A DNA stretch of 64,000 nt. Origin: Treponemataceae bacterium. Its GTDB lineage: Bacteria > Spirochaetota > Spirochaetia > Treponematales > Rectinemataceae. The position numbers are program-made. The stretch covers positions 32,001 through 96,000 of the forward strand of contig CAXXGJ010000017.1 in NCBI GenBank assembly GCA_963677895.2. Reading direction: 5' to 3'. How positions within the stretch are numbered: the stretch's first letter is position 1; every line of letters starts with the position of its first letter. Positions 15,001 through 21,000 of the stretch are shown here, piece by piece.

Positions 15001-18000
15001 ATGAGGACGACGCCCGGGAGAATGCCGGCCACACCCGATCCGAAGGCCTTGAGGCAGTCCCGGAAGGAAAGGCCGGCGACGAGGCCGGAGCCGAGGCCGG
15101 CGATAAGGAATATGAGGGCGATGATGGGCATGGAATAGTCGGCGAAGGTTCTCGTCAGCGAGACCGTCATGATGACGGCGATGAGGATGAGGATGGAGAG
15201 GCCGAAAAAGCGGGCGCCGCGGCCAGGCTTGAGGCCGGCTGTCTTTTCCGGCACGACATCGATAGGGAGGCCAGCGACGGCGCCGGGTTTTCCGGATTCG
15301 CATTTTTTCGCCATGGCCGCGAGCCAAAGGTAAAAGAGCGCGTAGACGCAGATGAACACGATTATCCTGAAACCCGAGCCGGAAAACATGGGAAGGCCGG
15401 CGAGACGCTGGGCCGTGCCTATGGTGAAGGGATTCGCGATGGCCGCCGAAAAGCCGAATCCCGTCGCGAGAATGCTCATTCCGAGTCCCACGTAGATGTC
15501 CCAGCCAAGGGAGAGGGAGAGGGCTATCGCCACGGGCACGAGGGGTACCGTTTCCTCGAAGATGCCGAGAAGCGATCCGATCCCCATGAAAAAGAACACG
15601 ACGATGGCGAGAAGAAGATAGCGGCGCGCGGCAAAGCGTCGGGCGATGAGGGTCACGGTCTCCTTGAGCACCGAAGCCTTGTCCAGAACCGCGAAGGCGC
15701 CGCCCACGATCATGATGAACAGTATTATGACGATTGCCTGGAGCCCGTCGCTGGAAGCGAGCACCTCAAAGGGGGCGGTAAACCAGCGCCAGACCGGATA
15801 GGCGGGCTTTTCCGTCATGATGTAGGTATCGGGCACCACCTGGAGGCCATATTCGCCCATGACCCGTTCGTATCGACCGGAAGGCAGGACGGCGGAGAGG
15901 AGGCCCGCCCCCAGCATCAGGGCGAGCAGCACGAGAAAGCTCGTGAGAAAGGCTTTTTTGGAAATGCGGAGCCCCGACTGTCGCTGAGCCATCGTCTTCC
16001 TCCATATGGGCGGTAAAAAGCCGGCAGGCTATGCCGCATAATGTTGACCTTGTCGTCATACTACTTCATACTTTTATCAAAAGGAAGATTTTGAATGAAC
16101 GACAATGCTACATCGGCGGCAATTTATCCCGATTTGCCCTCCAAACTATCACGTCTCGTGAGCTTTCCCACGGTTTCATCCTACAACCCCGGCGATGAGG
16201 ACGACGCGGCCTTCCTGGCGCTGAAAAGCGAGCTGCCCCTTCTCTATCCCCAGGTGCACGCGAAGCTGGTGAGGGAAGAACCTTCCGACAGGGCCCTTCT
16301 CTACACCTGGAAAGGAAAAAATCCCTCCCTCGCGCCGGTGGTGCTATGCGCCCATTTCGACGTCGTACCCGTTGCCGATACGGCGGGCTGGAAACATGAT
16401 CCCTTCGCGGGAGACATCATAGAAGGCGAACTCTGGGGCCGCGGCACCCAGGATATCAAGGTGCTCATGGCCTCCATTCTCGAAGCCGCCGAAAAGCTCC
16501 TGGAGCGCGGCTTCGAGCCCGAACGGACGATCTATTTCGCCTTTGGCGGCGATGAAGAGGTAGGCGGCCATAGGGGTGCCGCGGCCATCGCCGACCTTTT
16601 TGCCAGCAGGGGGATCAAGGCCTCTTTTCTCGTGGACGAAGGAGGGCCCATCTCGGTGGGCATGCTTTCCTTTGCCGCGCGTCCCCTTGCCCTCATCGGC
16701 GTGGCGGAGAAAGGCTATGCCGACCTTTGCGTGCGCGTGAAAGGTTCGGGAGGGCATGCCTCCATGCCGCCTCGACATACCGCCCCCGGCGATCTCGCCA
16801 GGGCTATCGCCGCGATCGAAGCGCGGCCCTTCCCCGCAAAACTCACGCGCACGGTGCGTTCCTTTTTCTCTCGCCTCGCGCCTGAATCGAGACAGCCTTA
16901 CCGTTTCCTCTTCAGCCAGCTCTGGCTGACAGCCCCGGTTCTCATGAGGGTATTCGCTTCGGGGCCGACCACGAACGCCTTGATACGCACGACCGTGGCC
17001 TGCACCATGCTCAAGGGTAGCCCGAAGGAAAATGTCCTCGCGGACAATGCCGAGGCTACGCTGAATGTGCGCATTCTCCCGGGCGAGACTTCGGAAGAAG
17101 TCATGGCGAGGCTGAACCGCATCGTGGCGCCTTACGGCGCGACGGTATCCCCCAAATATCAAGATCATGTAATCGAGCCGTCCAGCGAATCCGGAACGGA
17201 CCATGAGGGATGGAAGGCCATCGAGTCGGCCTTGAGGACATCCCATCCCCAGGCGGGCTGCCTGCCCTTCCTTTTCAGCGCCGCGACGGATACGAAACAT
17301 TATAAGAATGTCGTTGGCGCGATCTATAGATTCACGCCCTTGATCCAGTCCCAGGAGGACCTCAAGGGAGTTCATGGAGACAACGAGCGGGTGAAGCTGA
17401 GCGATCTCGATCGTTGCGCGCTTTTCTACGGTACGATGATGGAATCGCTCTAGACGGTACATCGCGTCGCGGGAAGGAAGCGGGTATTCAGGAAGCGCGC
17501 GTTTCAAAGGAGATGATCCTGGAGACCTGCATTTCGGAAGCTCGCTTCCAATTTTTAATTATTATCTTGCCTCGGATCATCTCCTGTATTAAACTTTTGT
17601 AATGAAAATAAAAATAATATCGATTATGATCGTGCTGGCGGCGATCGGTTCCGCCGTTTACGCGGTGGATGTAAACGGAACTATTGCCCAAGGCGAGTAC
17701 GCGAGGGAAACGTCATTCGACAATGGAAATTTCAGGCTCCTCTGGAAAATTCAGGGTGATGCGATATTCATGGCCATCGACGCGAAGGCGGCCGGATGGG
17801 TCGCGATAGGATTCGAGCCGACGAACATCATGGCGAATGCCGATATGATATTCGGCATCGTGGACAAGTCGGGCAAACTGCAGTCGATAGACGCCTGGTC
17901 CACCGGAATGTTCGGCCCGCACCCGCCAGACCTGAATCAGGGAGGCAAGGACAGCCTCCTCGCCTCCGCGGCCGGCAGATCCCAGGATCGGGTCGTATTC

Positions 18001-21000
18001 GAATTCTCCCGAAAATTGAATACCGCCGACAAGTTGGACAAGGTCATCCCCGCCAAAGGCTCGTTCAAGGTTATATGGGCTTATAGTTCCAGCCTGCAGT
18101 TCACCGCGAATCACAGTAAGGCCGGCAAAGCCACGCTCATGATGGATGGCTCCGAATGAGCCTCTTCCCCTTTCACCTGGCGCTCATGGCGACGGCAACC
18201 GCCGCCATGCTGGCGGCCATCGTCGTCGCGAGGTTTTTCAGAAAGAAGAAATGGTGGCTCAAGGCGCATAAATCGCTCAACCTTGCCGCCGTCGGTTTGG
18301 CTCTCTCGGGGTTTGTTCTCGCGCTTATCATGGTGCAATCGTCGGGCGGCCCCCACTTCAGGGTAAGCCACGCCGTCTTCGGCGGAGTCGCTCTACTTTT
18401 CCTGATCTCGATGCCGTTTCTGGGATTCATGATATTCAAATCGAAAGACAAGAAAAAAACGGCCCGGCTCAGAATCGCGCATCGCTGGCTGGGAAGGTTG
18501 GCCGCCATTCTTTGCTGCGTCGCCGTCGTCGCCGGGCTTTTCCTGATCGGCGTTCTTTAAGGCGATCTTTTCACGTTGCCCGATTTCGACCCCAGGTAAG
18601 CCGCCCGCACGGAGGGGTCGCTCGCTATTTCCCTGGACGGTCCCGATTTCACGATGCGTCCCTGCTCGAGCACGTAGGCTCTATCGGCCACCGTGAGCGC
18701 CTTGAAGGCGTTCTGTTCCACGAGCAGGATGGTCTTTCCCATGTCGCGGATCTTGACGATGATCTCGAACACCGTCTGGACAAGCAGAGGCGCCAACCCG
18801 AGCGAGGGTTCATCCATGAGCACAAGCTCGCCGTTGGTCATGAGCGCCCTGCCCATCGCGAGCATCTGCTGTTCTCCGCCCGACAGGGTGCCGGCTATCT
18901 GCTGCTCCCTCTCCTTGAGACGCGGGAAAATGGAAAAAACCTTGTCTATATCCTCGCGGACGACCTTCTTGTCATTCCGCAGATAGGCGCCCAGAAGAAG
19001 ATTGTCGGTAACGGTCAGATTGGCGAAAATCAGCCTTCCTTCTGGGACATGGCATATACCCGACTTGACGACCAGATCGGGTCGCCTGGCCAGCTTGGCG
19101 TCCTTGTAGAGAACTTCTCCCTGCGAAGGTTTGAGGAATCCCGAAATGGTGTTGAGGAGGGTGGACTTCCCTGCGCCGTTCGCGCCGATGATCGTGACGA
19201 TCTCGCCCCGCTTCACTTCGAGGGATACGCCTTTCAAGGCCCTGATGCCGCCGTAGGATACGTGGAGGTCGTTAACTTTCAGCATGATCAGGCCTCCTCT
19301 GTGGTGCCGAGATAGGCTTCTATCACCTTGGGGTTGTTCGCGACCTCGTCGGCTCCGCCTTCCGCGAGCTTCAATCCGAAATTGAGCACGACGATGTGCT
19401 CGCATACTCCCATGATGAGGTCCATGTGATGCTCGATGACGAGGACCGACAGCTTGAACTCATCGCGGATCCTGACGATCAGCTTCATGAGATGCTCGGT
19501 CTCGTCCGGGTTCATGCCGGCGGCGGGCTCGTCGAGCAACAGCAGTTCGGGATCCAGGGCCAAGGCTCTGACGATTTCCAGTCTCCGCTGCATTCCGTAG
19601 GGGAGATTGTTGGCAACGAGATCCCTTCTGTCCGTAAGGCCCATGATCTCGAGAAGTTTTTCGGCTTTCGCCACGAGCGCCTTCTCTTCCTTCCTGAAAC
19701 GCGGGAGGCGGAAAATCGACTCGGCGATATTGTAGGTGGCGCTCAAATGGCATGCGGTCAGCACGTTTTCGAAAACGGTCAGGTTCTTGAAGAGTCTGAT
19801 GTTCTGAAACGTTCTCGTGATGCCGAGATCGGCGATCTTGTAGGGGGGAAGCCCGACGACGCTCTGGCCCTTGAATTTCACGGCGCCCTCGGTGAGGGAA
19901 TAGACGCCGGTTATAAGGTTGAAAATGGTGGTCTTTCCCGCGCCGTTCGGGCCTATGAGACCCACGATTCCCCCCTCGGGAACCGAAAAGGACACATCGT
20001 TGACGGCGGCAAGTCCCCCAAAGCGTTTTGTAAGATGGGAGATTTCAAGTATGTCAGCCATTGCTGCCCTCCCCGTCCTGGCCGTTCTTCATTTCCTTCA
20101 GGGCTTCGAGCCTCGCCTTCCGTTCCATTCTCGCTTTCCGGATTCCCGCAGGCGTCAGTTCCATGCCGCCCATGAGCCCCTTGGGACGGGAAATCATGAT
20201 GAGTATGACCGCGGCTCCGTAGAACACGAGTCGCCAGATCTCGAAGGCGCGCAGGATTTCGGGCAGGGCCGTGAGCAGAAGGGCGCCCAACACGGAACCG
20301 GAGATCGAACCCAGTCCTCCAAAGATGACGATGATGGTGAGTTCGGTGGATTTTGTCATCGAGAACATCTTCGGCTGGAGGAAGGTCATGTAGTGGGCGA
20401 AGAAAACGCCCGCCACGCCGGCATAGACGGCGCTGACGATGAGCGCGATCATTTTATACCGGAATACGTTGATGCCCGATATCTGGGCCGCCAGCTCTTC
20501 CTCGCGGACCGCTATCATGTTGCGGCCGTGCCTCGACTTCACGAGGTTGGCGAGGAAAATGACGGCCAGCACGTCGACGAGAATGATGGCGGGCAACGTC
20601 GACTTGTAGGGAATGCCGGGCCAGCCGCGGGCGCCGCCGAATACCTGCACGTTGTTGAGCACGAGCCTCGTGGCTTCTCCGAAACCGAGCGTCGCGATGC
20701 AGAAATAGTCGCCCTTCAGGTTGAGGGTTATGCGACCCAGGAAGTAGCTGACTATGCCGGCGGCGGCTCCGCCGGCGATGACGCCGACGAAGAAAGGAAG
20801 CCCAAGGCCAGCGGGAGTCGTCGCCGGCGAAACGGTCATGAGGGCGCCGACGAAAGCGCCTATCGCCATGAATCCCGCGTGACCGAACGAGAACAGCCCA
20901 GTGAAACCGGTGAGCAGGCTCAGGCCGAGTACGGCGATGAGGTTGATCCCGGCGAGCATCAGGATGCCCTGGATATATGTCCAATCCATCTTATTCCCCC

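Follow-up and report, generated by a model that had tools for sequence, protein, structure and literature searches.

The window considered here is the whole stretch of 64,000 nucleotides analysed from contig CAXXGJ010000017.1 of a Treponemataceae bacterium, an environmental spirochaete. Two open reading frames on its plus strand, which share the four nucleotides ATGA at 18156-18159, encode a secreted DOMON protein and a small membrane protein of the cytochrome b561 family. The features of the locus are the following.

16095..17453: M20 peptidase ORF, upstream of the pair
17536..17558, plus strand: terminator-like hairpin and T-run after the M20 peptidase gene (stem 17536-17549, 5 pairs, T-rich tail)
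17566..17592, plus strand: putative promoter CTTGCC-15 nt-TATTAA, ending 9 nt 5' of the ATG
17602..18159, plus strand: gene for the secreted DOMON protein, 185 aa (Pfam DOMON, signal peptide, conserved residues)
18156..18560, plus strand: gene for the four-helix cytochrome b561 core protein, 134 aa (Pfam PF03188, conserved His, AF2 model)

The hairpin marks the DOMON/b561 pair as a transcription unit of its own. Since the putative promoter ends so close to the ATG, the leader is probably very short or absent. The same promoter arrangement lies 5' of the orthologues in loci L005, L010, and L011, and looser TTGC/AT-rich pairs are found 5' of those in L003, L006, L007, and L012; the sigma-70 scan did not call the promoter. 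Metatranscriptome contigs (two libraries from two studies) match parts of both genes with 90-99% likeness and give a weak hint of expression, such contigs being no proof of transcription. Each of the two families occurs once in the assembly. Among the loci compared, no conserved third gene stands beside the pair, and thus the neighbourhood indicates neither an electron donor nor an acceptor.

The preliminary description of this locus placed the first start codon at 17626, i.e., at Met9 of the longer frame, and therefore numbered the DOMON domain 32-153. The start at 17602 is better, with the N-terminal MKxK kept in the homologues, and the domain (PF03351; E 5.3e-23, 82 bits against a cut-off of 32.7) now spans residues 40-161. 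The overlapping pair itself, with a secreted DOMON product and a 134-aa four-helix product of PF03188, was correctly described, as the ORFs, Pfam cut-offs, and signal peptide demonstrate. This peptide (residues 1-21) contains no cysteine, so the DOMON product should be a soluble periplasmic protein.

Met77 (or Met82) and His171 are candidate haem ligands of the DOMON protein by conservation and position. M77, D81, M82, H107, and H171 are invariant in 35 stand-alone DOMON homologues, and M77, H107, and H171 are invariant in 22 sequences including fused and archaeal forms; His107 sits in a GPHPPD motif. According to the accessible part of PMC10784544, the HYP1 DOMON uses M90/H174, which occupy similar positions. 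Sequence searches from the DOMON protein reached no DOMON of solved structure, and the beta-sandwich fold is supported via the model of a fused relative, P0083. In the fold search, this model (pLDDT 89, pTM 0.71) matches the DBH DOMON at E 2e-8; pyranose and cellobiose dehydrogenase follow with their haem-b cytochrome domains at E 3e-6 to 1e-4. The latter domains (1d7c, 4qi3, and 6jt6) resemble DOMON in being a beta-sandwich with haem b used for mobile electron transfer, as stated in the same part of PMC10784544. However, they are parts of flavoenzymes secreted by fungi, where a flavin domain rather than a membrane cytochrome reduces the haem, and no sequence-level match to them was found.

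The second product matches Cytochrom_B561 (PF03188) over residues 9-128 (model 9-130 of 137) with E 5.4e-10 and 40.1 bits against a cut-off of 23, and at 37.4 bits in the whole-genome scan; all other families in the Pfam scan of this protein remained under their own cut-offs. The prokaryotic b561 family of the CybB type (PF01292) was ruled out (10.2 bits against 30.1, E 0.62), with E. coli CybB (5oc0) coming no higher than rank 13 among the fold matches (TM 0.53). Ferric_reduct (PF01794; NOX/FRE/MsrQ) was rejected likewise (16 bits against 28, with NOX-type structures at TM 0.33-0.50), as was DUF4079 (22.6 against 31.4). The AF2 model (pLDDT 91) folds the 134 residues into four helices, with H7, H38, H72, and H109 each at a helix start. 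The top four Foldseek matches in the PDB are chains of 4o7g/4o6y (TM 0.71, 24-25% identity, rmsd 2.9-3.5 A), A. thaliana 4o6y being the best structural match; the E-values are weak (0.08-0.2), as expected for a small helical bundle.

All five histidines listed previously (His7, His38, His67/His72, and His109) are in the sequence. Among 18 close homologues, H38, H67, H72, and H109 do not vary, and no full-length one lacks H7. In the 261 family domains collected, conservation is nearly complete: H7 in 249 of the 250 with a residue there, H38 in 259, H67 in 248, and H72 and H109 in 260 each. G113 (256/261), W34 (249/261), and a small residue at position 14 (G/A/S in 257/261; Ala in the window) are kept as well. 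A narrow profile restricted to the 18 close homologues reached no b561 of solved structure by sequence. Two such structures, A. thaliana b561 (4o6y, E 2.4e-8) and human Dcytb (5zle, E 1.2e-7), were matched by a profile built from 28 fused relatives, and the four haem histidines all line up in these alignments. The window protein matches this profile with probability 100, so that H7/H38/H67/H72/H109 correspond to H198/H229/H258/H263/H298 of P0083.

The rules for b561 proteins given in the available part of PMC10691727 allow these residues to be interpreted. H1 and H3 are the ligands of the outer haem, whose propionate is bonded by an Asn or His at H3-5, and the inner haem is held by H2 and H4; small residues occupy H1+7 and H4+4. 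In CYBDOM the core is formed by TM1-4 with the N-terminus outside, and in the animal proteins H2-4 is Trp and H2-3 is hydrophobic. A14, G113, H67, W34, and L35 of the window protein fit these rules as far as that part of the paper sets them out. His7/His72 would then bind a periplasmic haem and His38/His109 a cytoplasmic one, with His67 at the H3-5 propionate position. The distribution of Lys/Arg (7 in loop 26-39, 8 in loop 95-110, and 1 in loop 61-72) predicts that the N-terminus and His7/His72 are on the periplasmic side. In the fused relatives, DOMON stands directly before b561 helix 1.

The pair invites comparison with the classical b561 proteins, represented by A. thaliana CYBASC (4o6y) and human Dcytb (5zle). 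They have in common the four-helix core with aligned H1-H4, di-haem in the classical proteins and predicted to be so here; the residues at H1+7 and H4+4 are small, and the one at H3-5, which serves the propionate of the outer haem, is polar (PMC10691727, the part available). The model of the window protein comprises only this core: helices 1 and 6 of the six found in classical single-domain b561 are absent. The cytoplasmic ascorbate site, formed by basic residues at H2-7, H2-3, and H4-7 in the available part of PMC10691727, is one-third kept. K31 occupies H2-7 (K/R in 198/261), whereas H2-3 is Leu35 (hydrophobic in 259/261) and H4-7 is Thr102 (K/R in 60/261). In contrast to Dcytb, no His is present at H2+22, the metal and ascorbate site, where counting places Val60. 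Moreover, unlike classical b561, this protein would work with a separate DOMON haem protein.

Comparison with a broader set of relatives demonstrates that the pair is no rare oddity. The profile search gave 994 cluster representatives at E<=1e-3, and hundreds of fused DOMON-b561 forms make this architecture widespread in metagenomes; NCBI names some members “cytochrome and DOMON domain-containing protein”. Close relatives also turn up in groundwater metagenome runs. Within the family, 21 of 68 genomes had been reported to carry PF03188; we found it in 27 of 68 other family genomes at E<=1e-3, and in 23 over the cut-off. Among the best 150 profile matches, 46 of the 60 longer relatives are DOMON+b561 fusions. 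Those of about 320 aa, 39-44% identical, occur in Spirochaetota and Thermoplasmatota and align end to end with both gene products. P0083, from a Spirochaetia MAG and bearing the above NCBI name, is 44% identical over DOMON and has an hhalign probability of 100 over the b561 part.

The fused prokaryotic proteins, including Thermoplasmatota ones of 500-700 aa, are true homologues of both products with identical conserved motifs, but they are single chains and often carry additional Ig-like, fn3, cupredoxin, or cytochrome P460 domains. At each of the 13 Spirochaetota loci that were retrieved, a separate DOMON gene lies immediately 5' of b561; a Thermoplasmatota locus has the fused gene, and two Caldiserica loci have DOMON as a neighbouring gene. 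The window lineage forms a clade of 24 stand-alone b561 sequences; fusion and fission have occurred repeatedly, and the split form represents one clade. The architecture is not unique to this genome, and the fusion protein of which the pair represents the split form is common among uncultured bacteria and archaea.

The earlier reading of the pair as a split counterpart of the DOMON-b561 (CYBDOM-type) proteins is supported by the fused relatives and the aligned haem histidines. Eukaryotic CYBDOMs (Arabidopsis HYP1 and CRR, animal SDR2/FRRS1, insect CG8399) combine an outward DOMON with conserved Met/His and a b561 core whose first helix starts outside, as predicted for the pair, and the fused prokaryotic relatives have the same domain order. 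The pair shares the four haem histidines with them, as well as Trp at H2-4 and the hydrophobic H2-3 seen in CG8399. At the same time, CYBDOM is one chain, while a stop codon and the 4-nt overlap divide the pair into two polypeptides, leaving DOMON soluble; only four core helices are present, and the extra C-terminal helices are missing. The H4-7 Arg, fully conserved in CG8399 proteins, is replaced by basic residues at H4-3 and H4-5. The host differs too: it is a bacterium whose assembly yielded no haem synthesis genes, and one for which ascorbate is hardly to be expected as the donor.

We suggest, with a probability of roughly 0.7, that the products of this small operon conduct electrons across the inner membrane along three haems. 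The membrane subunit would be a bare four-helix core of 134 aa with both termini periplasmic and two haems b: His38/His109 would bind the one close to the cytoplasm, and His7/His72 the one close to the periplasm, its propionate being held by His67. Its partner, a Sec-exported mature DOMON of 164 aa, would carry a third haem b on Met77 or Met82 and His171. A cytoplasmic one-electron donor could dock on the strongly basic cytoplasmic loops, from where electrons would pass over the two membrane haems to the DOMON haem and then to a periplasmic acceptor. Being free, in contrast to the single polypeptide of the relatives, DOMON could serve as a diffusible shuttle. Reduced ferredoxin, flavodoxin, or a small anionic reductant seems to us a more likely donor than ascorbate. 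Judging by every b561/CYBDOM that has been characterised, chelates of Fe(III) or Cu(II) may be the acceptor; otherwise it may be some periplasmic protein. The analogy with ferric reductases lacks local support, because neither a convincing FeoB nor a cytochrome c peroxidase was found in the genome: FeoB_N scores 54 bits at best, in a 496-aa frame that contains two matches with a gap of about 60 nt and resembles a generic double GTPase.

The same haem wire is in principle reversible, and a flow in the opposite direction has to be considered, in which electrons from a donor such as Fe(II), either periplasmic or imported, would enter at the DOMON haem and be passed by b561 to a cytoplasmic acceptor. 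Potential donors are suggested by relatives fused to periplasmic redox domains, namely a COX2-type cupredoxin (P0174) and cytochrome P460 (P0245), and the groundwater occurrence of close relatives would suit this direction. Nevertheless, we regard it as very improbable: the characterised family members all carry electrons outward in the available parts of PMC10784544, PMC10784552, and PMC10691727, solved structures have their donor site in the basic cytoplasmic pocket, and no cytoplasmic acceptor is encoded nearby.

The genomic context offers another possible source of electrons. The organism was previously characterised as a fermenter, which is too simple, since late menaquinone genes for an MqnP-type prenyltransferase, a UbiD-type (mena_SCO4490-like) decarboxylase, and UbiX stand side by side in the genome, and a flavoprotein gene adjoins the tetrahaem cytochrome c gene. 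The three-haem module might accordingly be fed by the quinone pool, with b561 oxidising menaquinol and reducing the DOMON haem as a quinol:periplasmic-acceptor oxidoreductase, and a UbiA-family gene is indeed present in 22 of the 28 b561-bearing family genomes. The six others, including the 94% complete G020 and G039, have no UbiA match, however, and in one genus UbiA is found in 0/3 genomes while b561 is found in 2/3. In addition, the b561 proteins covered by the available part of PMC10691727 use soluble cytoplasmic donors, with no quinone site described there, and PF01292, the quinol-linked family, is matched at no more than 10 bits. We therefore consider a quinol-fed module improbable.

As claimed before, haem synthesis genes were not found in the assembly (92.76% complete, 5.46% contamination), in which ALAD, porphobilinogen deaminase, and ferrochelatase gave 0 matches each; hence, haem would have to be scavenged. 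The other haem users named earlier were also confirmed in the assembly: a catalase, ResB + CcsB, and a four-CXXCH cytochrome. The need to import haem for catalase and c-type cytochromes raises the question of whether DOMON captures scavenged haem in the periplasm and the membrane protein holds or hands it on. Such a role in haem acquisition or storage would agree with the distribution of the module within the family, where ALAD occurs in 0/28 genomes with b561 and in 11/41 without it, but this separation follows genus lines and so may reflect ancestry only. The four buried histidines on four helices point to two six-coordinate bis-His sites, the hallmark of fixed redox haems in solved homologues, and the fused forms extend to archaea and other phyla, where they are joined to redox domains. 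This makes the acquisition role, in our opinion, the most doubtful of the explanations discussed.

Returning to the outward three-haem path, we may speculate about its place in the physiology of these bacteria, although the full scenario is rather unlikely to hold in all its parts. The split module would represent a quinone-independent export of reducing power in anaerobic spirochaetes apparently unable to make haem: low-potential carriers of the cytoplasm, for instance ferredoxin or flavodoxin, would bind to the basic inner side of the 134-aa di-haem protein, and the free DOMON cytochrome b would be a diffusible shuttle serving several periplasmic acceptors. The prokaryotic four-helix form would then be ancestral to the eukaryotic CYBDOM and b561 proteins. 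The four-helix b561 with a free DOMON provides a minimal model of the module, and if the above scenario is true, the free DOMON would be a haem-b counterpart of the soluble cytochrome c.

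Two open reading frames that have the four bases ATGA in common make up the pair under study:

17602..18159, plus strand: DOMON ORF of 185 aa (ORF reading, Pfam)
18156..18560, plus strand: b561 ORF of 134 aa (ORF reading, Pfam)

The first product matches Pfam DOMON (E 5.3e-23, 82 bits; cut-off 32.7), and the second matches Cytochrom_B561, a family labelled "eukaryotic" by Pfam (E 5.4e-10, 40.1 bits; cut-off 23; model positions 9-130 of 137). The overlapping DOMON and b561 genes reported in the preliminary description are therefore both present as ORFs that pass their Pfam cut-offs. 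For the second protein every other Pfam family stayed under its cut-off (prokaryotic b561, PF01292, reached 10 bits, and the ferric reductase domain 16 bits), and no NCBIfam family matched either protein. Each of the two Pfam families occurs once in the source assembly, G000 (3.51 Mb, 39 contigs).

The membrane protein carries the histidine pattern of its family. The 18 close homologues (49-91% identity) all have H38, H67, H72 and H109, and H7 is found in every full-length sequence among them. Across 261 domains of the family, conservation is 259/261 for H38, 248/261 for H67, 260/261 for both H72 and H109, and 249 of the 250 that have a residue at the position for H7. The AlphaFold2 model (pLDDT 91) comprises four helices starting at H7, H38, H72 and H109, respectively. 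When it was compared with the PDB by Foldseek, the best four matches were Arabidopsis thaliana cytochrome b561 chains (TM 0.71, 24-25% identity, rmsd 2.9-3.5 Å) and human Dcytb gave a TM of 0.73, all with weak E-values of 0.08-1. A profile of the close homologues (A1) reached no solved b561 among the PDB sequences, its sole match being a chance one (E 0.75). The profile of 28 relatives in which DOMON and b561 are fused reached 4o6y (E 2.4e-8) and 5zle (E 1.2e-7), the four haem histidines falling in line in each case, and the b561 protein of the window aligns to this fused-relative profile with probability 100.

The window protein also fits most of the family rules set out in PMC10691727, in which H1 to H4 denote the four haem histidines. 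There, H1/H3 bind the outer haem and H2/H4 the cytoplasmic one, which would assign H7/H72 to the outer haem and H38/H109 to the cytoplasmic haem. The small residues described at H1+7 and H4+4 correspond to A14 and G113; the Trp at H2-4 and the hydrophobic residue at H2-3 of animal CYBDOMs, the eukaryotic single-chain DOMON-b561 proteins, correspond to W34 and L35. The fifth conserved histidine, H67, can be explained by the same text, because it lies at H3-5, where an Asn or His bonds the outer haem propionate. The CYBDOM core is described there as the first four helices with the N-terminus outside; in the window protein Lys/Arg residues number 7 and 8 in the two predicted inner loops versus 1 in the outer loop, a charge bias that would support the N-out topology. 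In solved b561 structures, according to the same source, cytoplasmic ascorbate is held by three basic residues at H2-7, H2-3 and H4-7. Only the first of them (K31) is kept here, the other two being absent, and basic residues stand at H2-2, H4-3 and H4-5 instead.

The partner is probably secreted. Homologues of the DOMON protein keep an N-terminal MKxK, a hydrophobic stretch and a small-x-small site, without cysteine, and we read residues 1-21 as a putative Sec signal peptide that would release a soluble periplasmic product. Since MKxK and the hydrophobic stretch are kept, we place the start at 17602; position 17626, taken earlier as the start, is Met9 of this longer frame. All of 35 stand-alone homologues keep M77, D81, M82, H107 (in GPHPPD) and H171, and M77, H107 and H171 stay invariant when fused and archaeal forms are added. 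The haem b ligands proposed for the plant protein HYP1, M90 and H174 (PMC10784544), seem to occupy positions similar to those of the conserved Met and His. No PDB sequence was reached by the DOMON profile (A3), and the mixed profile (A2) reached only the two b561 structures and no DOMON at E<=10. The model of the fused relative P0083 (pLDDT 89, pTM 0.71) matches known folds of the DOMON type: the dopamine beta-hydroxylase DOMON (E 2e-8), the cytochrome domains with haem b in pyranose dehydrogenase and cellobiose dehydrogenase, and two gamma subunits, one from ethylbenzene dehydrogenase and one from nitrite oxidoreductase. A complex prediction for DOMON residues 22-185, b561 and three haems, run without controls, gave scores of 0.02 and 0.00 where the mark was 0.32, and bears on binding in neither direction.

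The most likely reading of the pair is a three-haem wire, in which electrons would pass from a cytoplasmic donor to the His38/His109 haem, then to the His7/His72 haem, the DOMON haem and finally a periplasmic acceptor. As donors, acidic carriers of single electrons, ferredoxin or flavodoxin for example, would, in our view, suit the very basic inner face. For ascorbate, the binding site is kept only in part. Menaquinol is a possible alternative as donor to the b561 subunit; however, a UbiA-family gene is absent from 6 of the 28 family genomes that have b561. On the acceptor side of the proposed wire, characterised relatives reduce Fe(III), according to PMC10784544 and PMC10784552. The surroundings of the pair offer no local iron context, and a search of G000 found no cytochrome bd and neither FeoB nor cytochrome c peroxidase convincingly. 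We also considered tetrahaem cytochrome c and rejected it as a partner: it occurs in 12 of the 69 family genomes and in 3 of the 28 with b561, and is thus not a consistent companion as acceptor.

The wire would depend on imported haem. ALAD, porphobilinogen deaminase and ferrochelatase had no match in G000 (92.76% complete), which bears out the earlier statement that haem synthesis genes, ALAD and porphobilinogen deaminase among them, are missing; ALAD is also absent from the two other genomes of the genus. Within the family ALAD is found in 11 of 69 genomes, which are larger and belong to four genera, and it never coincides with b561 (28 genomes, ten genera). This separation tracks genus lines and therefore is not independent evidence. 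The further haem users listed before, namely catalase, cytochrome c maturation (ResB with CcsB) and a tetrahaem cytochrome, were all recovered in G000.

The tetrahaem c3-type cytochrome adjoins a 621-aa FAD_binding_2 flavoprotein: at contig C38, 99893-102418 (L035:2394-4916), the flavoprotein gene precedes one for a 175-aa product that has four CXXCH motifs (Cytochrom_c3_2), and the two look like a split periplasmic flavocytochrome-type reductase. No quinol dehydrogenase of the NapC/CymA type was seen among the CXXCH-rich ORFs of G000. At contig C25, 180135-182817 (L036), a C_GCAxxG_C_C protein with a twin-arginine signal and two C-terminal CXXCH motifs, a further haem user, lies directly upstream of ResB/CcsB. 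Elsewhere on C25 (L024:678-2906), genes for a UbiD-type (mena_SCO4490-like) decarboxylase, an MqnP-type prenyltransferase and UbiX stand side by side; they belong to the late part of the futalosine pathway that makes menaquinone, and the label "fermenter" once given to the organism is therefore too simple.

The split arrangement can be placed among its relatives. Searches with the DOMON protein return fused proteins of about 320 aa with both Pfam domains, one of which, from a Spirochaetia MAG, is named "cytochrome and DOMON domain-containing protein" by NCBI; in alignments of the fused relatives DOMON leads straight into a four-helix b561 with the motifs of the window's second protein. Among 1.84 billion cluster representatives, the number of relatives in the profile search was 994 at E<=1e-3 and fell to 343 at E<=1e-10; the new matches in the best 150 comprised 88 of up to 200 aa and 60 longer ones, 46 of which combine DOMON and b561. 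The fused-relative profile retrieved 298 proteins, and among the best 120 the named ones came from Spirochaetia, Spirochaetales and Thermoplasmata, none (0/120) had a eukaryotic name, and DOMON-only matches came from Heimdall- and Hodarchaeota archaea.

Among loci taken from species genomes, DOMON lies directly upstream of b561 in all 13 from Spirochaetota. The Thermoplasmatota locus encodes a fused protein of 675 aa, the DOMON gene is a convergent neighbour of b561 in two Caldiserica loci, and no DOMON was within reach of b561 in five loci (one labelled Deferrimicrobium, four Cryosericum). In a FastTree phylogeny of 261 domains the window protein falls in a well-supported clade of 24 stand-alone sequences, and the tree requires 10 or more switches from stand-alone to long forms or back; fusion and fission have therefore recurred, and the split form of the window represents one lineage. 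PF03188 (Cytochrom_B561) is present in 28 of 69 family genomes (24 over the cut-off), covering 10 of 21 genera, and in 23 of 400 other sampled Spirochaetota genomes, where it is concentrated in a few families; three large sampled families gave 0/50, 0/75 and 0/38.

Other architectures were also seen. Some relatives carry two DOMONs, or Ig-like or fn3 repeats; a COX2-type cupredoxin is joined to DOMON-b561 in P0174, a cytochrome P460 domain occurs in P0245, and the domain order is reversed in P0139, with b561 ahead of DOMON. These proteins, together with P0137, P0160 and P0211, amount to natural experiments on the partners of the proposed wire. In a Caldiserica MAG (L021:6403-7410, minus strand), a DOMON protein with a copper amine oxidase N-terminal-type domain is convergent to a stand-alone b561. 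Hodarchaeales, Heimdall and Promethearchaeota MAGs, as well as Thermococcus and Palaeococcus, encode DOMON proteins of 37-49% identity to this family (P0098, P0100, P0105, P0357, P0359, P0360, P0364, P0102, P0103), some with hydrophobic anchor segments, which may bear on how the eukaryotic DOMON arose.

Upstream of the pair the following features were located:

16095..17453: M20 peptidase gene
17536-17549: terminator-like hairpin 3' of the M20 peptidase gene
Ending 9 nt before the DOMON ATG: putative promoter-like pair CTTGCC-N15-TATTAA

Downstream, a livF-type ABC gene is convergent and overlaps the b561 stop codon. Given the terminator-like site and promoter-like pair upstream and the convergent livF, the transcription unit therefore consists of the two genes alone. 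Related promoter-like pairs stand in the same place upstream of eight orthologues (loci L003, L005-L007, L009-L012), and most orthologous loci have a TTGC-type element plus an AT-rich hexamer, ending 6-11 nt ahead of the DOMON start codon (17566-17601 in the window); a sigma-70 scan of the window did not call the pair. This position would point to a very short leader, nothing resembling a Shine-Dalgarno sequence is apparent ahead of the DOMON start, and the operon mRNA may be leaderless or nearly so. In nine orthologous upstream regions the promoter-like pair alone recurs, with no iron or peroxide box or other conserved regulator site.

The M20 peptidase gene precedes the pair in 9 of 13 Spirochaetota loci. 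We rejected it as a functional partner, as it has its own terminator-like site and the neighbours differ in other phyla; the liv ABC genes, convergent to the pair and likewise replaced in other phyla, were rejected as a functional clue. We read the conservation of neighbours as inherited gene order, not a functional link. The surroundings at 11123-14554, 14574-15992 and 18557-23251 (all minus strand) look ordinary from their translations, namely a DnaE-type DNA polymerase III alpha subunit, a multi-pass membrane transporter and a five-gene ABC transporter block of branched-chain amino acid type, and several related spirochaete MAGs keep this gene order. Two metatranscriptome libraries, from two studies, have contigs that match parts of both genes at 90-99% likeness, which weakly hints that close relatives express them. 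No record spans the gene junction by 31 letters on each side, and DNA carry-over is possible; stretches without RNA cover carry no information.

In plants and animals, cytochrome b561 and CYBDOM proteins reduce iron and recycle ascorbate. The fused form is already recognised by database annotation. Our literature search turned up no work on DOMON-b561 proteins of prokaryotes; judging by its title and by how others cite it, the survey of DOMON by Iyer, Anantharaman and Aravind (2007, Bioinformatics 23:2660), which lay outside that search, may already list bacterial architectures of this kind. PDB sequence and fold searches yielded two b561 structures and no complete DOMON-b561 structure. What we rate as new is the split, minimal, four-helix form in a bacterium in which no haem synthesis genes were found.

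The main use of the pair would be as a simple model for electron transfer between b561 and DOMON. A 134-aa core with a separate 164-aa soluble DOMON, in an organism without organelles, would be a much simpler system in which to measure haem potentials, DOMON-b561 docking and transmembrane electron transfer. The survey shows that Pfam's "eukaryotic" family has a wide distribution among uncultured prokaryotes, Spirochaetota and Thermoplasmatota included, where it would add a little-noticed way for electrons to leave the cytoplasm, with haem that these organisms would have to scavenge.
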